A stretch of DNA of 54,128 nt from an uncultured Candidatus Saccharibacteria bacterium. GTDB lineage: Bacteria > Patescibacteriota > Saccharimonadia > Saccharimonadales > EFPC-124. Shown piece after piece: positions 35,152 through 51,899 of this stretch. Within the stretch, counting starts at the first letter, position 1; the number at the start of each line of letters is the position of its first letter. Position numbers and translations under genes: made by a program. The notes beneath the pieces were generated by a model. The model did no database searches. It was given only the letters and a program-made list of their open reading frames with translations, and had not been told where the DNA came from. The stretch is from contig CAYOML010000006.1 of assembly GCA_964405095.1 (NCBI GenBank), positions 1 through 54,128 on the forward strand, written 5' to 3'.

Positions 35152-36444
35152 TCATTTCAACCTGTACCATGTCTCACCAATATCGTAGGCATTGCTGGCC
35201 ATTGGTGCCCGTTCTTCAAACGATGCCGAGGCAGAATTGCGGCTAAAGCCATCGTTGGCACCAACATACATGTAGGTGTGAGTCATGCCGGAGTTGATCC
35301 ATATATCTCCACCATGAAGGGTGTCTGTAGTCTTAACACCGGTAATCTTGATATACTTTCCAGCCTTTACCTGGTCCTCTAGGTATCGGTGCTGCTCTGT
35401 AACACGGCCCTGATACTTGTTGTATTCGGGGTCGGCCTTGCTATCCCGCATAACTCTTGTTACAAAGCCACCACAATCAACTCCCGGGTATGCGCCTCCG
35501 CCTATATATTCGCAGCCCGGAGTGCCTGTAGGGTAGCAACCAGGGGGATGCGCGGTATTGAGCGCTTGGGCATAGGCTGGTTTTAGGGCTCGGGCGTAAG
35601 TAGCATTGACATCCGGGTCGCGGTATTTTGGCCAGGAGTAGTTGATTGCTGTTTTGACAGCATCTCCGAGAACCGCGCTGCCTGTGCATAGGCCGGCAGC
35701 CGCGCCGCTGGTTGGTCCACCTAGTAGGACATAGATTGTGAAGGCACCAAAGCGTTTGTCTATCCCATCCAGACCGCCAAAGTCTTTGGTTATGATCTTC
35801 ATGTCGGTGTGGGCTGCATCGTAACGGCTCATGACATACGGCGAGCCTTCGTAAGGTTGTTTTACCGGGTCAAAGCCCAGGGAAGCAGCCTGATCGACGT
35901 AGACGCCCGCTCGCCCGTTGTAGCCAAACAAGGCGTCTTTAATAAGTTCGCTATCTATAGCTGCGGCGTTAATGTTCTTGCCGAATATGCCAGCCACAGC
36001 CTTAGATTGAAGTTCCTTACCGGCAATGATCACCGACTCTTCAAAGGTTGAAGGGTAGCCATATCTGGCATAACTGGTGGACGCTTGCTTATATGGCCCG
36101 CCGATCGGGTTACCGGCTTGCAAGTCCTTGGATGTATTCATGTTGCTTTCACGGTAGTGGATGCCGGCAAGCACCTCCCATGGCAGGTTGGTTTTACGCG
36201 CCGCCGACTCGTAAATCGACTTGTTCTTGTTTACGGCATCGATAAAGTCTTTTGGCAGTGACGCGTCGACGGTTCCGAGGGTACCGGCAGCGCATGTATC
36301 GCCAGGGATGTAATATGGTATGCCATTGCTGATGAGTTCTTCCAGGCCCTCGGCGTAAACAGGTATTATGGGTTGCAAACTCAAAACGAGAATTGACAGT
36401 ATTAAGACCGAGAACCGCCGTAAGTTTTTAAGGTTGTTTTTCAT
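35152..36444 (-). CDS. Secreted bifunctional cell-wall hydrolase (lysozyme/transglycosylase-like N-domain plus NlpC/P60- or CHAP-like C-domain), CwlT/PrgK-type
   Basis: Start set at ATG 36444 (MKNNLKNLRRFSVLILSILVLSL signal peptide). LPWEVLAGIHYRESNMN is a glycosidase-like Glu motif. VDCGGFVTRVM plus THTYMYVG is a Cys/His peptidase pattern. Overlaps the upstream gene by 17 nt. Confidence 0.55.
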   Translation of the reverse strand: MKNNLKNLRRFSVLILSILVLSLQPIIPVYAEGLEELISNGIPYYIPGDTCAAGTLGTVDASLPKDFIDAVNKNKSIYESAARKTNLPWEVLAGIHYRESNMNTSKDLQAGNPIGGPYKQASTSYARYGYPSTFEESVIIAGKELQSKAVAGIFGKNINAAAIDSELIKDALFGYNGRAGVYVDQAASLGFDPVKQPYEGSPYVMSRYDAAHTDMKIITKDFGGLDGIDKRFGAFTIYVLLGGPTSGAAAGLCTGSAVLGDAVKTAINYSWPKYRDPDVNATYARALKPAYAQALNTAHPPGCYPTGTPGCEYIGGGAYPGVDCGGFVTRVMRDSKADPEYNKYQGRVTEQHRYLEDQVKAGKYIKITGVKTTDTLHGGDIWINSGMTHTYMYVGANDGFSRNSASASFEERAPMASNAYDIGETWYRLK

Positions 36445-38983
36445 GACTACTACCTTCCGGATTATGGGTGTATCTGGCGTATAGCGCATCAACCGTCGAG
36501 AAGTCGGCGGTGCATATATTTGTCTGACCCGTCGGGGTAGTCTTACAATCGCCTGAGTCATCAAATAACTCTGGCGACAGAGGTGTTGTTTGCAGTGTCT
36601 GCAGAGGTATGCCCATGTGTTCGATCCCATCGATTGCCGAACTATCGGCACTGGCAGCCATTGCTGGTTGGGCGGCCATGGCTGCAATGCTCCTGGGGGT
36701 AGACCAAACTGCCGCGAATATCCCCTGAATGGCTGTGGCCAGATTGTCGCCAACACTAACAGCCACAGGTGATTTGAGTGCGGCGACGTTAATAAACGAA
36801 CCTGGTTGCATGCGATCGAACAAGCGTTTTTCGAGTGGTAAGTTAGCAACAGTGGCAGCGTTGCTACTTTGGCTGGCATATTTAAGCTCATTCTCCTGGG
36901 CCAGCGTGACTGGGCCACAGCCAAAGCGTGCACAGGCAAAGTTAGCCAGGGCATGGGCGCCAGTTCCCATACAGTTAAAGAAGTTAAAATTCTTTTCGGC
37001 GGGGTCGCAGATGGGCAGGAGTACTTTAGACGGTAACTTAAAGATGTTGTCGATATAGTCACCTAGCGCGGTGTTCTTAAGAGCGCCGAAAAACCTGGTA
37101 GAGAAAAAAGTAGCTAATGGTTGAGATGCGAAGACCATAATGACTGGTTCAGCAATCGAACGTATTTTGTACCATATTTCCATCGCCAATTTGAGTGGCG
37201 CAAATGCAATAAGCGACGCAAAGGATTTAAAGTAGGTTGACATTGGATTGGGCAACATACTGTTAACCTTCTCGTCCTCACCCATCGGCTTGCCGCGACT
37301 AGTATCGTCGTAGGCCACATAGTTGTAAGCCTGTGATTCTTCTATGTTGGCGTAGTTCCTAAAAATGAGCGAACTGCTTGGAGAGCTAGCGTCACCAGCA
37401 CCACTTTGGTTTACAGCGCTCAGGTTCCACAAGAAGAGTGCCCCAGCTTGTTTGCTGCGCAGGTCAGAAGTTACGTGGCTGTAAGCCGGGTCATCTTTCC
37501 CTTTGTAGATAGTCGTTGCCATGTCTAACCATCCAAGCATTACAATAGCTGGGCTGTTTTTAGAAAAGGCCTCGGTTATTTTTTGTCCTGCTGTGTCCCC
37601 TAGTTTTGATGTCGTGTAATTGTTCTCAGGCGTTATCGCCCCCATATTTTCATCGTAGGCTTTGTCGCTGGCGTTTTGGATCGACGATTCCGTTTTATCT
37701 TGGTATGCAGACTCGGCCGTCACACTGGCCGTCACGCTCGAATCTTGTGAGCAACCCTGGCCCGACAAGAAGCAGCTTAACGCCCAATGCAGACCATCAA
37801 TGCCAGGTCTCAGAATGGTCCCTATCTGTGATTTGACAACGTCGGTTAATTGCTCTGGTGACGTAGCATCCTCGGCACCAGGGATGGCCAGGCCCGGTAT
37901 ACTAAATGCTGCCTTGGCTGGCCGGCCAATTTGAGTGTGTTGCGCCCAATCCCATCCCCTCATCTCCTCATCCATTAGGCGTCTGAGGTCGGTGAATTTA
38001 TCGCGCAGAATCTTTTCGGCTTGAGCAGCATCATGGACTGTACCTAGGTCATTGCCGTTTTGCACAATTTGTACACCACCACCCGCACCGTTCGATCGGA
38101 ACTCCAAGCCAAAATTCTTTTTAATACGCTGCTCGAAACCATCTTTTTTCATGGCGTCGTAAAGTAATTTAAGTGACCCGTTTGTCACTGGGCCATCTGT
38201 GGTTACGCCCAGCACGTGCCCCGAGCTAGATTCGACTGCCGCCACATCCGCTGATTGGCCAGCGTCGCTAACTGCCGAGGCACCGCCGGTCACAAAACGC
38301 GACAATATAGATATGCCGCGGTTGTCGACAATCTGCTGAACTGGCGCCAGATACTTAGTGGCGGCCGAAAGGGTCGAAGCAATAGGTCGCAGGGCGTTTA
38401 AGAACAGCAATCCTCCAACTACAACGGTCAAAACACCAATAAAAGCTACGACTGCGACTTGGACTTTGTGTTTTAGAGCATAAGCTCCGACTAGAGCTAA
38501 CCCGGCTACTGCAGCACCAACGACAGCACCAGCACCGGCAGTTTCGGGGGCAGTTGCAGCACCCGCTGCGCCAGCCGCGCCAGCAATGCCAGTGGCACCG
38601 GCTGTGCCTGCGGCACCAGCTGCACCGGCTCCAGCTGCGCCAGCGGCGGCGGCACCTTCGGCACCAGCTGCTCCAGCTCCAGCCGCAGCTCCTGTGGCGC
38701 CTGTACCGGCTCCTGCTCCTAAGCCACTCTGAGCAGCTGATTCCCCGAGTTGCTGGCCGCCCCTTTTGGCACCTTCTCTAACCGCGCCTTTCGCGTGTTC
38801 CTTGGCTTTGCCTACGGCGTGCTCAACAGCCTGGTCCCTAAGAGTTTTTTCTGCTTCTTCTTGGGGCTTATGCTCAATCTCATGCTCGACTTCGTGTTCC
38901 ATTCCGTGCCCCGCATCAAAATGGGGGTGGGGATGTTCTTCTTGATCGCGCAAATGTTCTAAGGGGTCGTGTTGGTCAGGCAT
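36428..38983 (-). CDS. Large T4SS-associated membrane protein: His/Glu-rich N-terminus, Ala/Gly low-complexity tract, two TM helices, ~640-aa extracytoplasmic region
   Basis: 851 aa; HPHPHFDAGHGMEHEVEHEIEH; GAGAGTGATGAAAGAGAAGAEGAAAAGAAGAGAAGAAG...; TM segments AVVGAAVAGLALVGAYAL and VAVVAFIGVLTVVVGGLLFL. I recognise no family. Confidence 0.5.
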   Translation of the reverse strand: MPDQHDPLEHLRDQEEHPHPHFDAGHGMEHEVEHEIEHKPQEEAEKTLRDQAVEHAVGKAKEHAKGAVREGAKRGGQQLGESAAQSGLGAGAGTGATGAAAGAGAAGAEGAAAAGAAGAGAAGAAGTAGATGIAGAAGAAGAATAPETAGAGAVVGAAVAGLALVGAYALKHKVQVAVVAFIGVLTVVVGGLLFLNALRPIASTLSAATKYLAPVQQIVDNRGISILSRFVTGGASAVSDAGQSADVAAVESSSGHVLGVTTDGPVTNGSLKLLYDAMKKDGFEQRIKKNFGLEFRSNGAGGGVQIVQNGNDLGTVHDAAQAEKILRDKFTDLRRLMDEEMRGWDWAQHTQIGRPAKAAFSIPGLAIPGAEDATSPEQLTDVVKSQIGTILRPGIDGLHWALSCFLSGQGCSQDSSVTASVTAESAYQDKTESSIQNASDKAYDENMGAITPENNYTTSKLGDTAGQKITEAFSKNSPAIVMLGWLDMATTIYKGKDDPAYSHVTSDLRSKQAGALFLWNLSAVNQSGAGDASSPSSSLIFRNYANIEESQAYNYVAYDDTSRGKPMGEDEKVNSMLPNPMSTYFKSFASLIAFAPLKLAMEIWYKIRSIAEPVIMVFASQPLATFFSTRFFGALKNTALGDYIDNIFKLPSKVLLPICDPAEKNFNFFNCMGTGAHALANFACARFGCGPVTLAQENELKYASQSSNAATVANLPLEKRLFDRMQPGSFINVAALKSPVAVSVGDNLATAIQGIFAAVWSTPRSIAAMAAQPAMAASADSSAIDGIEHMGIPLQTLQTTPLSPELFDDSGDCKTTPTGQTNICTADFSTVDALYARYTHNPEGSSHEKQP

Positions 38984-38991
38984 AGTTTTCC

Positions 38992-40872
38992 CTAAGTTAT
39001 TGGCCCTTGCTCGTTAGTTTGCTGCTGGGAGTTAAAAAGCGTCTGTATTTGTTGTATCTGTTGGGGGTTGGTCGTGATAAGTGATGTCTCTGTAGGGCTG
39101 GCAATGACTTGGATGTGTACGTGATTAGAGCCAGCAAAAAACAATCCTTGGCCCACCGGGAACTGTGCCAGACGTTTTTTCTCCTCTTCGGTCAGTTTGA
39201 AAACGTCGGCTAGAACATCTACTGCCGAGGTAGATTGCTTAAGTAGCATCTGCATACTGGCGTTAGCCACAATCGCCCGCCCCATTTTGCTGCCCATAAA
39301 GTCTTCTACATCCTGAGTGATAGCCGTTAGTCCCAAGAAGTATTTGCGCGCCCGTTTGGCTAGGCTGAATAAAAAGTTGGCTGAATCATCATATTTCATA
39401 AGCTGCCATGCCTCGTCGACGATTAACAAGCGTTTTTTCTGTTCGCTGCGTGTCTTATTCCAAATATAGCTCAACACAATGTACATGGCTACAGGCCGCA
39501 GTTCGTCCTCGAGGTCGCGGATGCTAAACACCACCATCTTATTGTTTATGTTGACGTTAGATTGTTGGCTAAAGATGCCTGCAAAGGTGCCTGTTGTGTA
39601 TTTGCGCAGTCGCTGGGCTAGCTGCGGGCCGCTGCCACCCATGTGCAGCAAAGTCTCGTACAGGTCACCGATGGTTGGCGGCGGGCTGTTATGAGTTAAC
39701 GGGTCGCTGGTAATCCCGGCTCGGGCGTAGGTGTCGATTAAGGCTTGGTCGAGGTCGGCCTCTTCGGCTGGGTTGAGGGCCGGCAGTGACACGCCACCGG
39801 GCAGCATCTGAGCGCCACCCATCATTAGGCGCAGCAGCCCATGCAGAGTAATTAGGTTGGCACGCAAGGCGTCCTGGGCTTCGTCGTTTTCGATCACCCG
39901 TGGCAGATCAAAGGGGTTAATGCGGGTTGCGGAATTAAGACTGAGGGCAATGTAGGTGCCGCCAACTGCGTCGCATAACCGCTGATACTCGTTTTCTGGG
40001 TCTACAATAATAATTTCGGCGCCCATCATCATGCTGCGCATGGCTTCAAGTTTGACGGTAAACGATTTACCGGCACCAGATTTAGCAAAAACCACCATGT
40101 TGGCATTTTCTAGCGAGAACCGGTCGAATATTACCAGCCCGTTGTTGTGCATGTTAATGCCATACAAAACACCCTTCTCTTGCGTCAGATCGGCACTGGT
40201 AAATGGAAAACTGGTGCTCAGCGCGCCGGTGTTCATATTGTGCCTTATTTGCAACTGGTCACTGAGTTGTGGAATGGTGCTGTTTAGCCCCTGTTCCATC
40301 TGGCTGGAGGCGACTTTGCTGAACACTAACTGCTGCCCAAGAATAGTTTCGATCTTATGTTGTATAAATTGCAACTCGTCGAGGCTATCGGCATACATCG
40401 TAATATATAGGCCAAATCGGAAGAAACGTTCGGCGCCAACCTGCAACTTATCGCGCAGCTCCTCGGCATCCTGGATGGCAGCTTCCAACCCGGGGTCACG
40501 TACCTTACCCCGTTCGGAATTAATCGAGATGCTAGCCTCTAGCTGCCCGACTTTTTTACGCAGGTTATTGAGCACCACCTGGCTCTCAACCGGATAAATA
40601 AACATATTAACGTCGATGACTTCATCGATGTTAATAATTGGGCTCAGCCAACCAGTGTAAATCTGCCTTGGGTAGCCGTAAACGTACATTGTCCGGGCGT
40701 ACCTAGTACCAAGCCGGAAATAGCCAGCCTGAATTTCCAGCGAACTGGGCGCGATCACATCGCGCAGCGTGGTAATGCCCTTTAAGAACTCCTGCTCAAT
40801 CTCTTGCTGCTCACGCTGGCGCTGAGCCTGGGCTATATCAACCGGATCAACCTTTTTCTTGCCGAACGCCAT
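38992..40872 (-). CDS. virB4: VirB4-family T4SS ATPase (middle and ATPase domains)
   Basis: Walker A VVFAKSGAGKSFTVKLE, Walker B RLLIVDEAWQLM. The N-terminal part DVIAPSSLEIQAGYFRLGTRYARTMYVYGYPRQIYTGWL is typical of Gram-positive VirB4 homologs. Confidence 0.85.
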   Translation of the reverse strand: MAFGKKKVDPVDIAQAQRQREQQEIEQEFLKGITTLRDVIAPSSLEIQAGYFRLGTRYARTMYVYGYPRQIYTGWLSPIINIDEVIDVNMFIYPVESQVVLNNLRKKVGQLEASISINSERGKVRDPGLEAAIQDAEELRDKLQVGAERFFRFGLYITMYADSLDELQFIQHKIETILGQQLVFSKVASSQMEQGLNSTIPQLSDQLQIRHNMNTGALSTSFPFTSADLTQEKGVLYGINMHNNGLVIFDRFSLENANMVVFAKSGAGKSFTVKLEAMRSMMMGAEIIIVDPENEYQRLCDAVGGTYIALSLNSATRINPFDLPRVIENDEAQDALRANLITLHGLLRLMMGGAQMLPGGVSLPALNPAEEADLDQALIDTYARAGITSDPLTHNSPPPTIGDLYETLLHMGGSGPQLAQRLRKYTTGTFAGIFSQQSNVNINNKMVVFSIRDLEDELRPVAMYIVLSYIWNKTRSEQKKRLLIVDEAWQLMKYDDSANFLFSLAKRARKYFLGLTAITQDVEDFMGSKMGRAIVANASMQMLLKQSTSAVDVLADVFKLTEEEKKRLAQFPVGQGLFFAGSNHVHIQVIASPTETSLITTNPQQIQQIQTLFNSQQQTNEQGPIT

Positions 40873-40873
40873 G

Positions 40874-41812
40874 CTAGATGAGCTCCTTATCCAGATGTGG
40901 TTGAGGGGCTTTGCCCTCGCCCTTGGTGGTGACGGGTGCCGCTAGATCCTCAAAATTACCTAACGGTTCGCGCACCGCGGTATCCGGGTTGTAAACATTG
41001 TAATAGAGCTCTCCTAGCTCCTTGGTAGCCAGCTGTGCACAGCGGATCCCGATCTGTAACAAACCATTAGTAACCGCACCGACGCGGTTAGTCAGTTCAC
41101 TCTTGGCTTTGGTAAAAGTTGCCTCGTCGATGCGGATATGCTGTTGTTTTTGCGGTGCAAACAGATTGGCCAGGAAATTTTTGCTGCTATTAACGGCCGT
41201 CGACATATCCCCCGCCGGATAGTACGGGATTACGATAAAGAAGCTCTTTTCCATAATATTAGTCTCTTGAGCCAAGACCGATATAAAGCTTATGTAGTCG
41301 TCCATTAACACACCGAGAAGCATGTTGTCTTGGTCGCGGCGGATCTTGTCTAGGCGATCCAGGTAAGGTCCGATGTCGACTTTTTGCGAACGAATAAATA
41401 TTTGTACCGGAAAATACAGCGAGTTAAGAAACTGTTGGTACGAATATTCCACAGCTTCTTGCTCCCGCTCGCTCATAAGATCGAAATTTATCGAACGGCA
41501 GGCCACTATAGCGCGCATAGTGCCATCATTCATAACTACTAAATTATCGCGAATTTCAGAAATAATCAGTGCATTTTGGGTGCTGTTTGGGTTGCCGCGA
41601 ACTGGCGGGTTGTCTGACTTAGCCTGGACATTGCCAGCGACGGTCCTGCCAGCAATTGGGCTAGTCAAAGGGTTGGGGACGGGGTTGACCGGTATGTTGC
41701 CAAGCGGTGGCAGTGGTATCTGCGGCTGACCACCAAAAGCACCCCCGGCTGCCTGCGGGTCGACTGGTTGCTGATTAGCGTTTTGGTTGTCGTATGGAGG
41801 CATGTTACCCAC
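40874..41812 (-). CDS. Separate ORF resembling the N-terminal domain of Gram-positive-type VirB4, preceded by a Pro/Gln/Asn-rich segment
   Basis: IISEIRDNLVVMNDGTMRAIVACRSINFDLMSEREQEAVEYSYQQFLNSLYFPVQIFIRSQKVD ... ELGELYYNVYNP resembles, from memory, the first ~200 aa of TcpF/ConE/PrgJ-type ATPases. Stop TAG 40874-40876 lies 1 nt from the virB4 ATG. Confidence 0.5.
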   Translation of the reverse strand: MGNMPPYDNQNANQQPVDPQAAGGAFGGQPQIPLPPLGNIPVNPVPNPLTSPIAGRTVAGNVQAKSDNPPVRGNPNSTQNALIISEIRDNLVVMNDGTMRAIVACRSINFDLMSEREQEAVEYSYQQFLNSLYFPVQIFIRSQKVDIGPYLDRLDKIRRDQDNMLLGVLMDDYISFISVLAQETNIMEKSFFIVIPYYPAGDMSTAVNSSKNFLANLFAPQKQQHIRIDEATFTKAKSELTNRVGAVTNGLLQIGIRCAQLATKELGELYYNVYNPDTAVREPLGNFEDLAAPVTTKGEGKAPQPHLDKELI

Positions 41813-41845: not shown

Positions 41846-42754
41846 TTAACGTAGCTTGATCACCACTTCTTCTTCGCCGCCCAGCCTATGGGCCTCGTGA
41901 GCAATCGCGCTGATTGTCAAATCATCGTTGCTGGCTAGCCTGATTATATCAGGCGAAACTGCTTTCGGTACAGGCGGCGGCGCTGTGGGGGTTGGCGGGA
42001 TCACGGCTGCCGGCGCAGTAGCTTTAGCCGCCGGAGGTGGTACAGATTGTGCGGCTGGGGCAGCCTGGGCAGCGTGGCTGGCATCCATTGGCTGGATCAC
42101 CCTTTGGTGCATCGAAGCCGGATATGGATTGAACTGCGGCACCGGACCATCGCCGCTAGGTTTAGCGGCGTGTTGCATCTGCGCCACAACGGTCTGTCGG
42201 CGTTCTTCATCCTTTTTGGCAATCATACCGGCGAGCGACTGCGACAGCGAGGCGCCCTCGTCGAAAACATCAACAGCACTTTGGGCTTCGGCCACAACAT
42301 CGGTAACTAGACTGGCACCGGGGGCTGCCGTGCCCTTTAAAGCCCAGCCACGGCTATCCATAACTCGTGCCAAATAATCGAGACGCTCGCTGGCCGCCTC
42401 TGCACCGTACTCTTTTGCCAGATTTTGTTGAACAAGTTTAGGTGCCACAATCTCGACATAACTAATGGTGCCGTCTGGATTCCAAAGCCGCATCTTGGGC
42501 TTAAGGTAAAACCGCGCCAGCGCCAGTAGGTAAGTTTCCATTGGCTGCTCTTTGCGTAGCGGCAGAGCCAAGACTATGAAGAACAATACTCCAGGCAGTG
42601 GGATTATAATCAGAAACAGCGAAATCTGCAGCAAAACATAGGCCACGAAACCCAAACCGGCGGCAATACCAAGATAAATAAACTGCCGGAACCCAAACGG
42701 CCCAACCAGTTTGTCCTCTGCCTCCACATCTTGTGGCACTGTGTACGCTGCCAT
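41846..42754 (-). CDS. PrgI-family (VirB3-like) T4SS membrane protein with an Ala/Pro-rich C-terminal half
   Basis: MAAYTVPQDVEAEDKLVGPFGFRQFIYLGIAAGLGFVAYVLLQISLFLIIIPLPGVLFFIVLAL matches the PrgI-family N-terminal pattern. Confidence 0.65.
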   Translation of the reverse strand: MAAYTVPQDVEAEDKLVGPFGFRQFIYLGIAAGLGFVAYVLLQISLFLIIIPLPGVLFFIVLALPLRKEQPMETYLLALARFYLKPKMRLWNPDGTISYVEIVAPKLVQQNLAKEYGAEAASERLDYLARVMDSRGWALKGTAAPGASLVTDVVAEAQSAVDVFDEGASLSQSLAGMIAKKDEERRQTVVAQMQHAAKPSGDGPVPQFNPYPASMHQRVIQPMDASHAAQAAPAAQSVPPPAAKATAPAAVIPPTPTAPPPVPKAVSPDIIRLASNDDLTISAIAHEAHRLGGEEEVVIKLR

Positions 42755-42872: not shown

Positions 42873-43487
42873 CTAATGATCAGCCAGGTAGTGCTTAAGG
42901 TGCTCCATCGTCCTTTGTTGTTTTTCGTAATCAGCGACAAAGTCTAGATACTGACTGCTGCTCTCAAACATAGCCAGTATTTTTGCTGGGTGTAACCACT
43001 CGGGCCGATTACCATTCCTGTAGTAACGCAAGCTTGAGTAACGGTAAGTTTGCCAGAATCTTGGGTTAAGGTGAATATAGCGGCTGATGTGCTCTAAATA
43101 TGATTGTTCGTCAACCAAAACTGCCTTATAGCGACTCTCAAACAGCGGGCCGGTGCGTCTGTGGCGCAGGTTGAAGTAGCGACTATAGCTTGTCATAACA
43201 CTCCTCATAAGTTTTTCCATCGAACTAGCTCTGATTTGATACAAGAGTAGATGGAAATGGTTCTGCATCAAGCAATAAGCAAGCAGCTCGACCTGCCCCA
43301 AGTAATGTGGGTAAGGCGTACCTAAGCTGTCAAAAGCTGGATCTTTAGCTAGGTATCGCCCAAAAAGCCCCTCGAAGTGACGATAGTCCTGATTGTCTGC
43401 AAAGATTTTCTGCTTGTTCGCTCCCCTGGCGTAGATATGATAATAAGCAAGCTCGGCATTAGGCTTGAAAACATTCCGTGAAGGCAT
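42873..43487 (-). CDS. REP-associated tyrosine transposase-like protein (IS200/IS605 Y1 HUH family, COG1943 type)
   Basis: YHIYARGANKQKIF, AYCLMQNHFHLLLYQ (HUH = HFH), GPLFESRYKAVLV, RYIHLNP (catalytic Tyr region). Confidence 0.8.
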   Translation of the reverse strand: MPSRNVFKPNAELAYYHIYARGANKQKIFADNQDYRHFEGLFGRYLAKDPAFDSLGTPYPHYLGQVELLAYCLMQNHFHLLLYQIRASSMEKLMRSVMTSYSRYFNLRHRRTGPLFESRYKAVLVDEQSYLEHISRYIHLNPRFWQTYRYSSLRYYRNGNRPEWLHPAKILAMFESSSQYLDFVADYEKQQRTMEHLKHYLADH

Positions 43488-45155: not shown

Positions 45156-47639
45156 TTAACCACGAGACCTGATTCTGTCGACCTCCGCCCTGAATCCTGG
45201 TGCTATCTTCTCTGCCTCTTCCACGACAAACAATAATTCATCGCGGTGCTTGATCTTTGGATTGCGCAATGCCTGGCCAATTTTGGTGGCAGTTAGATCG
45301 CGTATGCTAGGATCTCCGGCATCTTCAAGTAGAGCCTTACCAAGAAAACCTAGCCCCGATACCTTGTTGGGGTCTGACGGATCCTTATATTCACCAAGCT
45401 GGCCCTTTTCCATTGCCTCGATCGTTATACTCCCAATAACCGAACGGGCTGCAGCTGTCTCTGTGGCGGTAGTGGCAGGTTTGCCTCCAAGCTTAATGGC
45501 AACAGGACTAAATTTACCAGCGGGGTCTAAGCCTGCATAACCTAGCCCCTGGAAGCCATTGGCTTTGGCGCTTTTTGCAACAGTTTCTATCATTACGTTG
45601 TTTGCGGCGAATACAGAGCCCTTCTCTTCCCTGAGTGCTTCAGCTGTAGCCCTCGTAGCTTCCATAACCTGGTCGTAATCCGATCCAGAGGCGTGTGCAG
45701 CCATCAACGCCGACATTCTAAAATCCGCAGTACCTATTCGGGTGCCAAACCTCGATTGAAGACTTTCCATTTCCTTTCTCTGTTCCTGGGAAAATCCGTA
45801 TGCTGGATTACCAGATGCATCTTTATGTCTTACCTTGGAGGCACCGCCGTTCTCGACCTCGGCGCGCTTAATATAGTCATCAATGCTCTCTCCAGCATTC
45901 ATGCGTGATAAGTGTGCCGACAAGGGCGAGCCACCCAAGCGTCCAATCGCAGTCGCTGTTGTTCCTAATTGGCTCTCTCGCAACTTTTCAGCTGCGGACA
46001 GGGTCTGCTCGGTTATGGCACCTCGTGCACCCTTAGGCAGGAAGCGAGAGCCACCTCTCAGTAATCTTGCCTGTACTCCCTTACCTTCAAGAAATCGTTT
46101 CTGTCTATATTGTTCCCAACCACCTTTAAGGGCTTGGCCAGCTTTACTGTTGACGGCTCGTTTCTTGGCGAACTGACCTGTTCTATTCCTGTAATCCTGT
46201 GCCTTGGAATACACCTGGTGCATGGCGCCACCTGCCAACTTAAAGGCAAACGGTATAGCTAGCAAAGGCAGCAAGAAGGCCATGAAGCTGATCAATGCAA
46301 TCACAAAGTCGGATACTCCTGCGCTTTCGCCAGCCACACTCCCAACCTGAGATAATACCGAACTGGCAATTTTACCGGCTGCGAACAGCAACACGATAAT
46401 GGGGTACATGGCTAACAGGCGTATGAACATTTCACCCCACTTGCGGAAGAGGCTTTGCGTGTTTGGCAGTAGCCCTGCAACAAAAGCCAGGGGGGCCACA
46501 ATAAACAAGAAGATAAGGAAAACCTGCCGAACAATAAGTGTTGCTGCGGCTATCAGCACAACTATTAGAGCAAAGATAAAGAACACAAAGACGCCAAATA
46601 TGATCCCCGGGGCCAGAGCTGCTATACCCAGTGCCATACCTCCGTTCGCAAACAGGTTCGCAGTGCTTATTGCGCTGAGGTCTATACTCGGTTGTCCATT
46701 CAGCACTGTAGATATTACTAGCGAAGCTGCCCCTGCACCCAGAACATTGAATATGTCTACCAGGATTGCACAGATAAAGAACGATAGATTGGTAGCGACT
46801 GCCACTATAATCAGACGCGGTAATAAGCGTTTTATGCCGTAGTTAGTAATACCTGCCGAGGTGGCTTGCGAGAAGATAATCACAAAGAACACTAAAATGA
46901 AGGCAATATTGGCTATGTTCCTTACGTTGTTCCAAACAGTGTAAAGAATAGTCTCTTGACCACTAGCATCGGTGACGGTCAGAGGGTTAACGCTCAGGAA
47001 AGGCTTTATGAGGTGCTCGAAGATAAAGTCTAGCGCGCCAAATAGGACCTCGAGTGTTGGGCACACAATCCAGGTCATTATTATGCCCTTGCCAGAACAA
47101 TCGATAACCGGCGTGCCGTCTTTGCCTACTTGGTTGGCAGTACCAAGCACACGTTCGGTGCTGGCATCGCTGCCGTCCAGATAAGTTATCGTATTATTAG
47201 TGACGACAACATTGGCATATGTCTTGGTTGCCGAGTAATAAGTGTCGCCGAGGTCGGTTTTTGAACAGAATGCACTAAGAAGGGGTGTCTTGTTAATGAT
47301 AGAAGTGAACCAGTTTTTTTTGCAGCCTTCACTGGTAAACTTGAAGTCCAACTTAATGGTATATGTCCCCGGTTTGACGTTGCTAAGAACAACTTTGCCG
47401 CCACTTACAGATATATTCACACCCCCCGGATCGGGCGAAATTGTGACCTTAGTATTGTCACCTTCCGCCGTAATCTTGGTGCCTTCAACCTCAACAACGT
47501 ACTTACCACCCTGGATCTCGCCGGTAGTTGCTGAAGGCGCGGCGAATGCCGGATGGGCCAATAAAAACAGGCCGGCAATAACCAGTAAACCGCCAGCAAA
47601 CCATGCCCATACCCGTTTTAGACCCACGAAAGTAAGCAT
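45156..47639 (-). CDS. VirB6/TrbL/PrgH-like polytopic T4SS channel protein with an N-terminal secreted beta domain and a ~350-aa hydrophilic C-terminal region
   Basis: 827 aa; signal peptide WAWFAGGLLVIAGLFLLAHPAFA; ~7-8 hydrophobic helices across residues ~190-470; position upstream of the PrgI-like and VirB4 genes. Family call rests on topology and synteny. Confidence 0.5.
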   Translation of the reverse strand: MLTFVGLKRVWAWFAGGLLVIAGLFLLAHPAFAAPSATTGEIQGGKYVVEVEGTKITAEGDNTKVTISPDPGGVNISVSGGKVVLSNVKPGTYTIKLDFKFTSEGCKKNWFTSIINKTPLLSAFCSKTDLGDTYYSATKTYANVVVTNNTITYLDGSDASTERVLGTANQVGKDGTPVIDCSGKGIIMTWIVCPTLEVLFGALDFIFEHLIKPFLSVNPLTVTDASGQETILYTVWNNVRNIANIAFILVFFVIIFSQATSAGITNYGIKRLLPRLIIVAVATNLSFFICAILVDIFNVLGAGAASLVISTVLNGQPSIDLSAISTANLFANGGMALGIAALAPGIIFGVFVFFIFALIVVLIAAATLIVRQVFLIFLFIVAPLAFVAGLLPNTQSLFRKWGEMFIRLLAMYPIIVLLFAAGKIASSVLSQVGSVAGESAGVSDFVIALISFMAFLLPLLAIPFAFKLAGGAMHQVYSKAQDYRNRTGQFAKKRAVNSKAGQALKGGWEQYRQKRFLEGKGVQARLLRGGSRFLPKGARGAITEQTLSAAEKLRESQLGTTATAIGRLGGSPLSAHLSRMNAGESIDDYIKRAEVENGGASKVRHKDASGNPAYGFSQEQRKEMESLQSRFGTRIGTADFRMSALMAAHASGSDYDQVMEATRATAEALREEKGSVFAANNVMIETVAKSAKANGFQGLGYAGLDPAGKFSPVAIKLGGKPATTATETAAARSVIGSITIEAMEKGQLGEYKDPSDPNKVSGLGFLGKALLEDAGDPSIRDLTATKIGQALRNPKIKHRDELLFVVEEAEKIAPGFRAEVDRIRSRG

Positions 47640-47689: not shown

Positions 47690-48772
47690 CTATTTAGGGT
47701 CGCCGGTGATCATGCCAAAGCCCCAGGGGCCCAATACTCGCACGTCGTCGGATGTTTTTTCTAACGGGACAATACGCAACGGACCCCTTGTTGCACTCGT
47801 ATTTTGCCTTTGGTCATCTATCATGGCGTTCACCTTGTAGTATCTATATCTGAGGGTATAGGTTCTTGGTGTATCACCCATTTCATCTGTCACCTGTACG
47901 CTGATCTCCCACACATCCGGGCTGATCTGTTTAACTTGGCTCGTACCCTCCACAGGTTTTATAAACCTGGGTTGCTCCCCACTCCATGAATCAAAAGACT
48001 GACCATCAGCCACTGGATGGTTTTTCGCAAGCCTTTCGACTTGGGCGTATGTTGCTGAGTTCTTGGATAATGATGCCCCACAAAGAGCTTTAAATAAGGG
48101 CTCATCCAAGTGCCCGGCGTTTGATAGCAAATAAGCCGCCTGTTGGATACACATCTCGTAGGTGTGAGCCTTCCCCTCAACAGTGCCGGCAATACTATCT
48201 GGATCGTTTATACCTCTTAAAAGCTCATATAAAGGATCAGTAGAACCCTCTGGGATTTTCAGACTGGAGTTAAAAAAGCTGAGCGGCATTGCATCTGCCT
48301 GTAAACCAACAAAGCTTACAAAATCATCTTCAGGGTAGAAGGCCATCCATGCTGCTTGGTCGGCCGGTGACAATCGATTGATCTGCTCAACCGACATCGC
48401 ACGCAATTTCACTAACTCTGATTCCTGTTGTGAGGGTGTTGCCTCGATAAAGGCGGCCACAATGTTGCCGTTGGCACCAACATTTACCTCTCCTGGTGCG
48501 ACTGCTACCCGCCCATCACCTGCACCTGTAGGAGTGTTACCCGGGCCACAGCCTGCCACTGCCAGTGCTGTCGACAGGCTAAGACCTGACGCCATCAAGG
48601 CCAGAACCCGTGCTACCCTGCTGTCGCGCAGTCTTTCGGCTAGACTTGGCCTCACCTCGTTGTTTGTGTTAAACTCAAATTCGCGACTTTCGGCTGGGCC
48701 GAGAGTGGACGGGTCTACTATTCCTACACTCTCACCAGTCGGATTTGCTGACATAATGCCTGGCATATCCAT
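47690..48772 (-). CDS. Putative lipoprotein, first gene of the T4SS-like operon
   Basis: Lipobox-like LSTALAVAGCGPGN about 70 aa into the ORF; the true start is probably downstream of 48772. Confidence 0.5.
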   Translation of the reverse strand: MDMPGIMSANPTGESVGIVDPSTLGPAESREFEFNTNNEVRPSLAERLRDSRVARVLALMASGLSLSTALAVAGCGPGNTPTGAGDGRVAVAPGEVNVGANGNIVAAFIEATPSQQESELVKLRAMSVEQINRLSPADQAAWMAFYPEDDFVSFVGLQADAMPLSFFNSSLKIPEGSTDPLYELLRGINDPDSIAGTVEGKAHTYEMCIQQAAYLLSNAGHLDEPLFKALCGASLSKNSATYAQVERLAKNHPVADGQSFDSWSGEQPRFIKPVEGTSQVKQISPDVWEISVQVTDEMGDTPRTYTLRYRYYKVNAMIDDQRQNTSATRGPLRIVPLEKTSDDVRVLGPWGFGMITGDPK

Positions 48773-48946
48773 CCTCCTTGTTAATTACCTTCTATCGCAA
48801 TCTATTGCAGCTCTATTGGTAATAATACGATAAATACGACAAAAGTTGAAAATAGTTACATAACGCCTACACACCTTTTATAAAGGTTTACCTTGTAGCC
48901 GGGGCGTGGTATAACCAAAGCAGGGTTATATCGAGAAACAAATACC

Positions 48947-49384
48947 GTGCAAGTACAAACTTCATTAAACAAACTATCATCCCTGCTGTGGGGCATGGTT
49001 CTTGCTGCCGTTATTATCTTTTTTGCATCTTATCCGGCATCTGCTGCCACTGGCGGCGCCAACTGCACTATAGGTGGTCAGCCAGGTGTGCAAGTATCGG
49101 TAGGTGTAGAAGGTTCAAAATGTATACCTCTGGGGGCTACACCCGACACCAACCCCATAATTGTTTTTATGAAGGACTTACTTAAAGTGATAAGTGGATT
49201 GGTCGGGTTAGCCACGGTCGGCGGTATTATCTGGGGCGGTATGCTGTATGTGACTGCTCGGGCTAATGCCGGCCAAGTCGAAAAAGCCAAAATTGTAATT
49301 ATTAATTCGATAATAGGCCTAGTATTATTTATTTTTATGTTTGCAATACTGCAATTCTTAATACCAGGAGGGATATTTTCGTGA
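48947..49384 (+). CDS. VirB2/TrbC-like T4SS pilin paralog 1
   Basis: Signal peptide, Cys pair (ANCTIGG...GSKCIP), two-TM hairpin GLATVGGIIWGGMLYVTARANAGQVEKAKIVIINSIIGLVLFIF. GTG start. Confidence 0.65.
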   Translation: MQVQTSLNKLSSLLWGMVLAAVIIFFASYPASAATGGANCTIGGQPGVQVSVGVEGSKCIPLGATPDTNPIIVFMKDLLKVISGLVGLATVGGIIWGGMLYVTARANAGQVEKAKIVIINSIIGLVLFIFMFAILQFLIPGGIFS

Positions 49385-49803
49385 TGAAACGCTGGTTTGC
49401 AATATTGGGAGTAGGACTGCTGCTAGCCGTATCCCAGGGTCTGCCAGCGGCGGCAAAGCCATATGAGGGTGATGGGGATAGGTCATGCCGCAGTAGTTTT
49501 GGCCAATTCTTGGGCTTTAACTCCTGGGATTCGTGTTTGTACCATGCTTCCAGCGGCGCCCCAATTCTTAAGGGTATAGCCGACATCTGGTATATAGCCA
49601 TAGTGGTGATAGATGACTTCCTTAAGGCTGGAGTTTACGCTTCTATCGGCTTTATTATCTGGGGCGGCGTGAAGTATCTTAAAAGTCAGGGCGATCCTGG
49701 CGAGACAACTCAGGCCCGCCAGATTATCCACAATGCCCTTTTTGGTCTGGTGATTACTATTATTTCTGTTGCGATTGTTAACTTTGTAGCGAGTACATTC
49801 TAA
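49381..49803 (+). CDS. VirB2/TrbC-like T4SS pilin paralog 2
   Basis: Signal peptide, Cys pair (RSCRSS...WDSCLY), IGFIIWGGVKYLKSQGDPGETTQARQIIHNALFGLVITII. 4-nt ATGA overlap with paralog 1. Confidence 0.65.
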   Translation: MMKRWFAILGVGLLLAVSQGLPAAAKPYEGDGDRSCRSSFGQFLGFNSWDSCLYHASSGAPILKGIADIWYIAIVVIDDFLKAGVYASIGFIIWGGVKYLKSQGDPGETTQARQIIHNALFGLVITIISVAIVNFVASTF

Positions 49804-49804
49804 T

Positions 49805-50116
49805 ATGTTGAAAGATTTATTAAGCAACCTAGCCGCGCCCATAAATGTAGCACCAAATGATATTGGTATACCCCAAGTGCCACTCGATAATTCAGCGCTA
49901 GCCAATGCTTTGAGTGCGGTCTTTATGCTGCTTGGTGGAATGGCAGTCTTGTTTATGCTGGTTGGAGCCGTGCGTTACATAACTAGTGCGGGTGACCCAA
50001 AGAACATCAAAACGGCCAAAGACACGATTTTATATGCGCTCGTTGGTCTCGTAATTTCCATGTCGGCTTTCACCGTAGTACAATTTACGTTAGGTAAACT
50101 TGGCGGCAGTATATGA
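49805..50116 (+). CDS. VirB2/TrbC-like pilin paralog 3 (no signal peptide, no Cys pair)
   Basis: MAVLFMLVGAVRYITSAGDPKNIKTAKDTILYALVGLVISM core only. Confidence 0.6.
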   Translation: MLKDLLSNLAAPINVAPNDIGIPQVPLDNSALANALSAVFMLLGGMAVLFMLVGAVRYITSAGDPKNIKTAKDTILYALVGLVISMSAFTVVQFTLGKLGGSI

Positions 50117-50484
50117 TAAAAAAAATCGCGGCAGTAGTTGTGGCAGTAGTTATTATGGCTTTGGGTGTTGTCTCTCAGGCGCAGGCCGTTGATATTTTCC
50201 CAAAATGCGCAACTAATGACCCAGGGTCAACAGTCTGCACTGCCACTCAAGATAAGTTACTTGGCCCGGGTAGTTTGTGGAACAGAATCCTCGAGACATT
50301 CACGTTTATTATTGGCGCCGTGTCTGTACTGATGATTATTATTGGCGGCATTCGCTATGTAACGTCCGGAGGTGACCAAGCCAATATTAAGGCTGCCAAA
50401 GATACGATTCTCTACGCTGTAGTTGGTGTTGTTGTAGCTATGCTTGCTTACTCTATTGTTCACTTTGTAATATCTACCATATGA
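50113..50484 (+). CDS. VirB2/TrbC-like T4SS pilin paralog 4
   Basis: Signal peptide ...VSQAQA, Cys pair (PKCATNDPGSTVCTA), IIGGIRYVTSGGDQANIKAAKDTILYAVVGVVVA. Confidence 0.75.
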   Translation: MIKKIAAVVVAVVIMALGVVSQAQAVDIFPKCATNDPGSTVCTATQDKLLGPGSLWNRILETFTFIIGAVSVLMIIIGGIRYVTSGGDQANIKAAKDTILYAVVGVVVAMLAYSIVHFVISTI

Positions 50485-50882
50485 ACACACAACGAATAGC
50501 CTTACTGGTCGCGAATCTGGTGGTTGCCCTAGGCCTGGTTGCCGCTGTTGTGACGCCTGTAGCCGTCCAAGCTGCTGATCCCGCAACATCTAAAGCACTC
50601 TGCGAAGGCTCAGGCGGCACGTGGAACGGCAGTGCATGTACTAAGGCCGGTGAAGAATCGATACCAAGTGTATTTGGCACGATTACCAATGTTTTGTTAT
50701 TTGTGATTGGGGCAGTTAGCGTTATTGTTATCATCATTGGTGCTATCCGCTATGTGACATCGGGCGGTGAGCAGGCCAATATTAAGGCCGCAAAAGACAC
50801 GATATTATATGCAATCATCGGTCTTGTAGTAGCCTTCCTGGCATATGCTGTCGTCAACTTTGTAACGACACAGTTTAAGTAA
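50481..50882 (+). CDS. VirB2/TrbC-like T4SS pilin paralog 5
   Basis: Signal peptide ...VAVQAA, Cys pair (ALCEGSGGTWNGSACT), IIGAIRYVTSGGEQANIKAAKDTILYAIIGLVVA. Confidence 0.75.
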   Translation: MNTQRIALLVANLVVALGLVAAVVTPVAVQAADPATSKALCEGSGGTWNGSACTKAGEESIPSVFGTITNVLLFVIGAVSVIVIIIGAIRYVTSGGEQANIKAAKDTILYAIIGLVVAFLAYAVVNFVTTQFK

Positions 50883-50939
50883 GTCTATGCAAACACCGTC
50901 TGAGTGGTACAATAAAAAGCATAAGGAGAATAACTTAAG

Positions 50940-51356
50940 ATGAAATCATTCATGAGCGCAGTTACCAGAGCGTTGGCGATACCTCTGCTGACATTGAGCT
51001 TGGGTCTAGCTATGCCAGCTGCGACCTACGCCGTAGATTGCACAACCAATAACCCAGACATTACTACTGGCCCGAGCGGCGGCGCAGCTTGTGCTAAGCC
51101 AGCTAGCGGCGCTACAGATCTATTTGGCCCTGGCGGTATCTTTATTACGATTACCAACATCCTGCTGTTCGTGATTGGTGCCATTGCTGTGATCATGTTG
51201 ATCGTCGGCGGTATTCGTTACGTCATCTCATCGGGCGACCAAACGGCAGTTACCAATGCTAAAAACACGATTCTTTACGCGATCATTGGTATTGTGGTGG
51301 CCTTCCTGGCCTTTGCCGCAGTCAACTTCCTGACCGGGCAGCTGACTCCTAAGTAG
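50940..51356 (+). CDS. VirB2/TrbC-like T4SS pilin paralog 6
   Basis: Own SD (aaggag), signal peptide ...PAATYA, Cys pair (VDCTTNN...GAACAK), IVGGIRYVISSGDQTAVTNAKNTILYAIIGIVVA. Confidence 0.75.
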   Translation: MKSFMSAVTRALAIPLLTLSLGLAMPAATYAVDCTTNNPDITTGPSGGAACAKPASGATDLFGPGGIFITITNILLFVIGAIAVIMLIVGGIRYVISSGDQTAVTNAKNTILYAIIGIVVAFLAFAAVNFLTGQLTPK

Positions 51357-51375
51357 GTAATACTTCCTGTGAAGT

Positions 51376-51405
51376 AAAAACAACCCGCATATGCGGGTTG
51401 TTTTT
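51376..51405. terminator. Bidirectional intrinsic terminator between the pilin array and hsp20
   Basis: Perfect 30-nt palindrome aaaaacaacccgcat/atgcgggttgttttt with A-run and T-run flanks. Confidence 0.8.
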
Positions 51406-51422
51406 ATATTTAGAGCGAATGT

Positions 51423-51899
51423 CTACATGATCTCGATCTTGCGGGCTTGTTCTTGCTTAACCTTTACAAAGCTGATGGTGAGCACACCGTCCTTCAAAAC
51501 GGCCTCAACCTCTTCTTCCTTCACCTGTGCAGGCAAGGCAATGGTGCGAGAGAACTCACCCCAGTAACATTCCTGCAGGTGCCATTGCTCAACCTCTTCC
51601 TCACCACTCGTCAATGTACCGCTAATAGTTAGGATGCCGTCGGAAATGCTTACATCCAGGTCTTGTTTGTTGACGCCAGCAGTGCGGGCTTTTACAACCA
51701 GCTTCTCGCGGGTCTCGTATACATCGACTGCTAGTTGACCAACAGGTTGTTCTTCTTCCCAGTTTTCGTCGGCAGATGCAGCGGCTACATTTGAATCGTC
51801 AGCCGGAGCAGCATTGTCGTCGTCACCCAAAAAGGCGGCAGCCAGTTCGTCTTCCATCAGTAAGTCGTCATTTTGCTTCTGTCCACGTGCCATCGACAC
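51423..51899 (-). CDS. Hsp20/alpha-crystallin small heat-shock protein
   Basis: LAVDVYETREKLVVKARTAGVNKQDLDVSISDGILTISG...FSRTIALP...GVLTISF. Candidate promoter TTGCCA-18-TATAAT on the minus strand at 51947-51976. Confidence 0.85.
   Translation of the reverse strand: MSMARGQKQNDDLLMEDELAAAFLGDDDNAAPADDSNVAAASADENWEEEQPVGQLAVDVYETREKLVVKARTAGVNKQDLDVSISDGILTISGTLTSGEEEVEQWHLQECYWGEFSRTIALPAQVKEEEVEAVLKDGVLTISFVKVKQEQARKIEIM

Follow-up and report, generated by a model that had tools for sequence, protein, structure and literature searches.

Saccharibacteria carry a type IV secretion system (T4SS) whose locus includes a tandem array of small genes, and here we describe such an array in a 54,128-nucleotide (nt) stretch of DNA from an uncultured Candidatus Saccharibacteria bacterium (assembly GCA_964405095.1, contig CAYOML010000006.1, positions 1 to 54,128), referred to below as the window. 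McLean et al. 2020 (PMC7427843) described, for TM7x, six small proteins with Sec signals encoded in the T4SS region, an arrangement of four to six genes conserved in Saccharibacteria, and proposed that they are Ptx-like effectors. In S. epibionticum ML1, the genes SEML1_0014-0019 (399, 558, 312, 381, 384, and 417 nt) lie on the + strand and all belong to PF18895 (Wang et al. 2023, supplement; PMC10633639), and all six were essential by transposon sequencing (PMC10633639; reviewed in PMC12857230). They are flanked by a VirB6-like gene upstream and by Hsp20 as the next gene, both on the − strand, and a seventh pilin gene, SEML1_0024, which is convergent and located 3 kb downstream, is non-essential (PMC10633639). 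Quinonero-Coronel et al. 2025 (PMC12102498) counted, in 383 Patescibacteria assemblies, 441 arrays with 2-11 pilin genes each, abundant in Saccharimonadia and with a mean within-array identity of 25%, and, drawing on the analogy of Bartonella and Anaplasma, suggested that they help in adapting to host strains. The system is without a relaxase and a coupling protein (PMC10633639), and one account calls the function of the saccharibacterial T4SS completely unknown (PMC11665869). In the only Saccharibacterium that is genetically tractable, epibiotic growth requires both this T4SS and its pilin array, and the T4SS is the leading candidate for the device by which these ultrasmall epibionts draw on their hosts.

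The array in the window (48947-51356, + strand) consists of six intact tandem open reading frames (ORFs) of 103-145 aa, each ending in a two-helix hydrophobic hairpin, and is a rediscovery of the published, already known six-gene VirB2-like saccharibacterial pilin array. As in S. epibionticum ML1, six PF18895 genes on the + strand (145, 140, 103, 123, 133, and 138 aa here; 132, 185, 103, 126, 127, and 138 aa in ML1) are flanked by a VirB6-like gene (upstream, divergent) and an Hsp20 gene (downstream, convergent), with dnaA nearby; the organism is a different one, and essentiality has been established in ML1 only. The TM7x array is the same type of locus, but it was read as encoding Ptx-like effectors, whereas the two-helix pilin core favors structural subunits. 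The array is likewise a further instance of those collected in PMC12102498, in which versatility toward host strains was proposed, whereas positional orthology, cysteine parity, and an internal promoter are unmentioned there. No new type of system is thereby added; what our analysis contributes is the orthology of six types, the parity of cysteines, a leaderless type 3, a promoter for type 6, and a link to the integrative and conjugative element (ICE) of Mycoplasma. We read the array as a fixed six-part kit, not as a variable repertoire, and we consider it reasonably probable that the six types build one obligate heteromeric VirB2-like pilus or conduit of a monoderm T4SS.

ORFs were called in 82 genome-derived loci, and pilins were detected with an iterated hidden Markov model (HMM). 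Among the 62 arrays uncut by contig ends, 41 had six genes, 12 had seven or eight, eight had four or five, and one had a single gene. For positions 1 to 6, the best full-length BLASTP match in another genome lay at the same position in 45, 42, 43, 44, 44, and 45 of 46 six-gene arrays, respectively. Each gene of the window also found its best match at the corresponding array position, and the core of gene 1 matched position 1 in 44 of the 45 other arrays. Judged by these comparisons, the six pilins are separate, ancient types that are kept in fixed order across the class, and we number them accordingly. Where the gene number is other than six, the order from 1 to 6 is preserved; most of the difference comes from extra copies of type 6, more rarely of type 1 or type 4, and from loss of type 5, the commonest absentee in shorter arrays. 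Type 6 accounted for 27 of 28 separate extra copies and for 10 of 11 seventh tandem genes. In S. epibionticum and in some 25 of the 62 related loci, one more type-6-like pilin gene lay 1.5-5 kb downstream of the array, as a rule on the opposite strand; any such copy in this genome would lie past the window end (beyond 54128).

Type 1 (48947-49384, 145 aa) has a leader, a head with C40 and C59, and a diverged two-helix core; its start codon is ambiguous between GTG 48947, used here, and ATG 48995. Type 2 (49381-49803, 140 aa) also starts with GTG, followed by an ATG at 49384, and has a leader and a head with C36 and C52. Type 3 (49805-50116, 103 aa) lacks both leader and cysteines, and its 30-aa acidic, proline-rich N-terminal tail leads directly into the core. 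Type 4 (50113-50484, 123 aa; C32 and C42) has a canonical core, and type 5 (50481-50882, 133 aa; C41 and C53) and type 6 (50940-51356, 138 aa; C34 and C51) likewise carry a leader and a head. The leaders of types 1, 2, 4, 5, and 6 end in ASA/A, AAA/K, AQA/VD, VQA/AD, and TYA/VD (slash, predicted cleavage site, placed by reading the leader sequences), all of which fit the (-3, -1) rule. From gene 1 to gene 6, the intergenic distances are -4, +1, -4, -4, and +57 nt. The overlap reads GTGA at the junction of genes 1 and 2 and ATGA at those of genes 3 and 4 and of genes 4 and 5. Gene 2 has a Shine-Dalgarno (SD) sequence, AGGAGGG (49366-49372), inside the 3' end of gene 1, and gene 6 has AAGGAGA (50923-50929). 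No recognizable SD was seen for genes 3, 4, and 5 in the window, which fits termination-reinitiation. Codons 2-4 of gene 4 (MIKK) contain an A8 homopolymer (50118-50125) that codes for the conserved lysine-rich start of the leader. We considered this run as a slippage switch and rejected it, as it encodes the KK of the conserved MKK leader start.

The motif RY(V/I)(T/S)SGGD...AK(D/N)TILYA is present in genes 3-6 only, and genes 1 and 2 have the diverged versions MLYVTARANAGQVEKAKIVI and VKYLKSQGDPGETTQARQII; eight alignment columns are invariant across the six proteins. In the core, genes 4-6 are 46-63% identical among themselves and genes 1-2 are 25-34% identical to the others, and the mature heads, of about 30-47 aa, share 8-27% identity. 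Much of what had been noted on this DNA from the letters alone, in a sequence-only reading, stands: six tandem pilin paralogs with a two-helix core, paralogs 1 and 2 as the more diverged ones, and mature N-terminal regions that differ widely in sequence. Its estimate of 30-60 aa for these regions was too high. The core motif that it assigned to all six proteins is confined to four, and cores 4-6, which it called almost identical, are less alike than that. One cysteine pair in five of six proteins was correctly seen, but the spacing of 11-20 residues has to be replaced by position differences of 10-19. The linkage of genes 1-5 by ATGA overlaps or a 1-nt gap holds everywhere except between genes 1 and 2, where the overlap is GTGA.

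We then compared heads and cores across 46 genomes. Mean pairwise identities of heads and cores were 15% and 44% for type 1, 23% and 43% for type 2, 19% and 39% for type 3, 26% and 52% for type 4, 20% and 57% for type 5, and 32% and 65% for type 6. Thus, heads evolve faster than cores in every type (15-32% versus 39-65%); constraint is strongest on type 6 and weakest on the head of type 1. These rates come from amino-acid identity because the loci with DNA were all at most 66% identical at pilin 4, too saturated for the ratio of nonsynonymous to synonymous substitution rates. The contrast of head and core to which the sequence-only reading had pointed is thus real, yet type-specific features of the heads are conserved. 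The head of pilin 4, with its cysteine pair and the predicted leader-cleavage site, is kept in orthologs at 45-86% identity. Among the relatives listed, the closest to pilin 4 (76-86% identity) came, as protein sequences only, from one soil-type JGI metagenome (sample 3300041967); homologs were found in assemblies of Candidatus Saccharimonadales or Saccharibacteria, with 'pilin' as the NCBI name of some of the proteins. A scan of species-representative genomes with the VirB6-like protein confirmed no relative, nor did a metagenome scan with pilin 4 alone; its repeat with alignment A2 returned 79 loci, all at most 61% identical and hence no close relatives, and these loci were left out of the comparisons. 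Array contigs of the Saccharibacteria type (L010, L015, L011, and L077) were also found filed in metagenome-assembled genomes labeled Magnetospirillaceae, Verrucomicrobiia, Woesebacteria, and Parcubacteria, respectively; at least L010 and L015, which are short contigs, look like binning contamination.

In the window, the two cysteines of a head differ in position by 19, 16, 10, 12, and 17 in genes 1, 2, 4, 5, and 6, and gene 3 is cysteine-free. Among 276 mature heads from the 46 genomes, 190 had an even, non-zero number of cysteines, three had an odd number, and 83 had none, although independently placed cysteines with the same mean would yield more odd than even counts. Such parity is a classic disulfide signature, and the exported heads are very probably disulfide-bonded; the pair noticed in the window is thereby borne out as a conserved feature. 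Exactly two cysteines were found in 45 of 46 type 2 orthologs and in all 46 type 4 orthologs. Type 5 had no cysteine in 25 genomes, two in 19, and four in two, and type 6 orthologs had two or none. Type 3 had a median length of 99 aa, a hydrophobic N-terminal segment in 2%, and no cysteine in 44 of the 46 genomes. Type 1 orthologs had 2-12 cysteines, nearly always an even number. At six loci (L027, L041, L043, L050, L057, and L064), the type 1 protein was either duplicated or 300-440 aa long, as against about 145 aa, with up to 12 cysteines in the head. The enlarged form may be a host-contact domain fused to the pilin core.

The gap between genes 5 and 6 contains a candidate internal promoter of gene 6 (50886-50913, + strand), composed of a -35 element (TATGCA, 50886-50891), a TG dinucleotide (50905-50906), and a -10 element (TACAAT, 50908-50913). 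In the corresponding gaps of other arrays, the TG of an extended -10 element was found in 40 of 45 loci, the -10 hexamers read TATAAA, TATAAC, or TACAAT (pattern TGnTAnAAn), and TTAACA occupied the -35 position in 18 loci. The mean promoter score of the gap was 10.5, versus 8.3 (standard deviation, 0.1) for shuffled sequences. The distance from the -10 element to the start codon of gene 6 had a median of 31 nt, and an SD-like sequence preceded gene 6 in 38 of 46 loci. This promoter, with its conserved extended -10 element, goes unmentioned in the papers on these arrays that we read. By these sequence signals, transcription of gene 6 probably starts at two promoters, that of the operon and its own. 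For the operon as a whole, a candidate lies at 48887-48915 (+ strand; -35 TTTACC, 48887-48892; a 17-nt spacer ending in TGg; -10 TATAAC, 48910-48915) and scored 10 of 13 in our own scan. A generic promoter scan left it unflagged, and the region 5' of gene 1 scored no better across loci than shuffled sequence; we infer from its elements that it may be the operon promoter.

Downstream of gene 6 lies a palindrome (51375-51406) with two 16-nt arms that are 100% complementary, an A-run on one side, and a T-run on the other. On folding, a 56-nt segment at this site forms a 12-bp stem with a U-run behind it (-23 kcal/mol, z = -6.1). Although a generic terminator scan missed it, folding and a repeat finder both picked it up. 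Because the A-run lies on the 5' side, the palindrome is likely to be a bidirectional intrinsic terminator common to the array and the convergent hsp20. The SD of gene 6 and the perfect terminator behind it had both been called correctly from the sequence.

Next, we considered the family to which these proteins belong. All six match PF18895 (T4SS_pilin) with E values of 2e-5 to 9e-13. Genes 1, 3, 4, 5, and 6 scored 34.4, 44.7, 48.5, 41.3, and 40.7 bits, above the gathering cutoff of 26.6 bits, and gene 2, at 25.0 bits, fell slightly below it and matched the family HMM with E = 2e-27. That HMM, built from 495 relatives, matched all six genes (E = 2e-27 to 3e-42) and none of the remaining ORFs in the window. 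Membership of the array proteins in PF18895 is established. Hydropathy profiles showed two C-terminal hydrophobic helices in all six proteins and an N-terminal leader in every one except that of gene 3. The AlphaFold2 model of pilin 4, made with a 24-sequence ortholog alignment, had helices at 55-84 and 89-122 with a predicted local distance difference test score (pLDDT) above 90, and a head at about 53.

Homology of the array proteins to canonical VirB2 is plausible from profile matches. In the window, gene 4 gave the best score against PF04956 (TrbC/VirB2), 21.0 bits (E = 4e-4), with residues 50-117 aligned to positions 35-96 of the 98-position model. All 24 pilin-4 orthologs matched PF18895, and 12 of them also matched PF04956, in register and below threshold, at E ≤ 0.01 (best, 4.6e-6). 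The placement among T4SS pilins that had been predicted from the letters alone is thus upheld by PF18895, with PF04956 in register beneath its threshold. A tblastn search of plasmids with a TrbC-positive ortholog returned nothing meaningful, and a deep VirB2 profile from plasmid relatives of TrwL was dropped (26 records, little diversity). Like the VirB2 of the T-pilus and TrwL of R388 (PF04956), the array proteins have a leader, a two-helix hairpin with a short polar loop, and virB3, virB4, and virB6 as neighbors. The canonical systems differ in that they usually have one pilin gene without a cysteine-pair head and belong to diderms, whereas the host of the array is a monoderm.

A second likeness points to monoderms. 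All six proteins matched nearly the whole 80-aa model of NCBIfam NF045849, the 'Mbov_0395 family pilin-like conjugal transfer protein' of the Mycoplasma ICE, at 22.5-32.9 bits (E = 7e-5 to 4e-8), under the equivalog cutoff of 40, which suggests homology, though not membership. The Mycoplasma system is likewise monoderm; it differs in having a single pilin-like gene and in being conjugative. Together with the match of the window VirB4 to the Mycoplasma ICE model Mbov_0397 (256 bits), these matches hint that a pilin-like subunit may be native to monoderm T4SSs; the monoderm (MPF-FATA/Mollicutes) T4SS lineage may have possessed such a subunit ancestrally and not have borrowed it from diderms. The question of pilins in monoderms was left open in PMC12102498, on the premise that MPF-FATA systems are without a pilin-like subunit. 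Contrary to that premise, our matches suggest that monoderm systems of the MPF-FATA type do have one.

In the heteromeric pilus or conduit that we propose, signal peptidase I would remove the leaders. Each subunit would then sit in the membrane as a hairpin with both termini outside and its R/K-rich loop inside, as the positive-inside rule and the analogy with VirB2 predict, and the external heads would be closed by disulfides. The VirB4/VirB6/VirB3-like machine would extract these subunits into a single heteromeric structure spanning the envelope, in which the six types would not be interchangeable. More tentatively, we suggest a division into five coupled minor subunits (priming, base, or tip) and a separately promoted major subunit, type 6, with a variable host-facing head on type 1 and disulfide-stapled heads on the exported members. 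Type 6 is the candidate major subunit because it has its own promoter, the highest conservation, and the most frequent duplication; it would form the bulk of the polymer, and types 1-5 would be stoichiometrically coupled minors in a complex at the base or the tip. The best candidate for host contact would be type 1, whose head varies most and is greatly enlarged in some genomes, and the leaderless type 3 may be inserted by a YidC-type route. In type IV pili and type II secretion system (T2SS) pseudopili, minor-pilin operons encode coupled, individually required small subunits, and the major subunit is expressed separately and strongly. Type IV pilins are an unrelated family with one N-terminal helix and a prepilin peptidase site, and their assembly machine is also unrelated; the analogy with the array is therefore one of mechanism only and concerns its major/minor logic. 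If our model is true, VirB2-type pili, for which no such division has been described, would share the one seen in type IV pili and T2SS pseudopili.

Several points weigh against this model. T4SSs of the Gram-positive type are normally pilus-free (PMC10633639, PMC12102498), and in the literature on these arrays we found no pilus of the VirB2 type on any Patescibacterium. The link to canonical VirB2 is weak: no window protein reached the PF04956 gathering cutoff of 27.9 bits, hhalign of the pilin-4 profile A2 against R388 TrwL (a single sequence on that side) gave a probability of 0.3%, and a sequence-profile search of the PDB returned no hits. Foldseek with the pilin-4 model found only generic helical hairpins in the PDB (best E = 1.3), because a helical hairpin is too simple to discriminate. 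The assignment of major and minor subunits rests on gene organization, conservation, and duplication pattern, and the first of these has a bias of its own: the figures for junctions 1-2, 2-3, and 3-4 (an overlap or a gap of at most 5 nt in 76-93% of arrays) and the median gaps of 11 nt at 4-5 and 69 nt at 5-6 were obtained with longest-ORF starts, which favor overlap.

The absence of pili from monoderm T4SSs (PMC12102498) would be accounted for if the hairpin proteins formed a membrane-resident heteromeric ring or platform of the T4SS, with no extracellular filament. Tight coupling suggests a fixed stoichiometry, the short inter-helix loop is the most conserved part, where VirB4 or VirB6 could dock on the cytoplasmic side, and the proteins bear a sub-threshold likeness to a 'pilin-like' protein from the ICE of Mycoplasma, a wall-less organism. 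However, the promoter, conservation, and duplication of type 6 speak more for the bulk subunit of a polymer than for a 1:1 ring, external heads stapled by disulfides point to exposure, and the family resembles pilins that polymerize; we regard such a platform as unlikely, though a serious possibility. A quite different proposal is that the six Sec-signal proteins are substrates of the T4SS and form a multi-subunit, toxin-like complex by analogy with ptx/ptl (PMC7427843). Five of the six have Sec-type leaders, the array lies within the T4SS cluster, and protein export is plausible since a relaxase and a coupling protein are absent (PMC10633639). Against this, all six proteins terminate in a pair of long hydrophobic helices with a match to a pilin family, unlike a soluble toxin subunit, the mature heads comprise just 30-47 aa or so, and type 3 is leaderless, so that this proposal appears extremely improbable to us.

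Divergence within the array is strong, with an identity to gene 1 of 22-28% for the other array genes and a published mean of 25% (PMC12102498). Together with heads that diverge about twice as fast as cores, and with type 1 heads and type 6 copy numbers that differ between genomes, this could indicate that the paralogs are interchangeable pilin variants serving antigenic or phase variation or adaptation to host strains. Strict positional orthology across the class and conserved type-specific traits argue the opposite, as does the individual essentiality of all six genes in S. epibionticum, in which only the extra seventh is dispensable. The longest tracts shared by paralogs in the window are 16-71 nt at 66-88% identity, and there is no high-identity inter-paralog DNA for gene conversion. 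A repeat search of the window found no inverted repeats bracketing a promoter, its sole strong inverted repeat being the terminator, and no invertible element or silent cassette was found. Moreover, putative co-transcription and coupling of genes 1-5 are the opposite of expression one at a time. We therefore hold a variant repertoire to be highly improbable. Bartonella and Anaplasma (cited in PMC12102498) also carry multiple VirB2-like genes in tandem at a single T4SS locus, but those paralogs are thought to serve antigenic variation or breadth of host range, whereas the array copies are fixed, non-redundant types. The sequence-only reading had left the choice between a heteropolymeric filament, phase- or host-specific pilin choice, and antigenic diversification of hypervariable heads. 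The filament fits best; with six ancient positional types, no switch, and no recombination substrate, the other two lose their footing, and the comparison of copy number and heads across genomes points the same way, to a fixed six-type order with extras mostly of type 6. Nor did the paralogs of relatives carry disabling changes: all six were intact, in keeping with their essentiality in S. epibionticum.

The genes around the array include those of the T4SS. Directly upstream and divergent is a gene for a 360-aa protein (47690-48772, − strand) without a Pfam or NCBIfam hit; proteins of 312-353 aa occupy the equivalent site in related contigs, making it a conserved neighbor. It is followed on the − strand by an extended VirB6/TrbL-like polytopic membrane protein of 827 aa (45156-47639; PF04610 TrbL, 26.8 bits, cutoff 25.9; NF046089 CD3337/EF1877 below threshold), a PrgI/VirB3-like protein (41846-42754; PF12666 PrgI, 51.9 bits; PF19044, E = 1e-30), a TrsD-like protein (40874-41812; TrsD, E = 1e-7), and a VirB4 ATPase (38992-40872; NF045971, CD1110 family, 359 bits, cutoff 325), all encoded within 10 kb of the array. 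On the other side, Hsp20 (51423-51899, − strand; PF00011, E = 1e-19) is convergent with the array, and it occupies the equivalent site in L001-L003 and, as SEML1_0020, in S. epibionticum. Distant relatives show the whole arrangement again, with six genes of which the third is short, VirB6 divergent from them, and Hsp20 convergent; L001-L003 have both flanking genes. Upstream of the T4SS cluster lie dnaA, dnaN, recF, and yidC, with dnaA about 17 kb from the array. The neighboring genes, the matching G+C content (46.9% in the array, 48.4% in the window), and the names of homologs together indicate that the locus is chromosomal, origin-proximal, and saccharibacterial.

Other ORFs of the window were also noted. 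Within the T4SS cluster, between the gene for the PrgI/VirB3-like protein and the small ORFs that precede VirB6, lies an IS200/Y1-type transposase ORF (42873-43487, − strand; PF01797, E = 2e-10). Two ORFs of 636 and 851 aa (35152-37062 and 36428-38983, − strand) match no Pfam or NCBIfam family and overlap by about 635 nt in different frames, one start probably being over-extended; they are presumably T4SS-associated surface proteins. Finally, positions 230-28136 hold a large surface-polysaccharide cluster with several GT1, GT2, and GT4 glycosyltransferases, a Wzm/Wzt-type ABC exporter (22111-24122), a GDP-mannose 4,6-dehydratase, epimerases, and a GtrA-fused methyltransferase.

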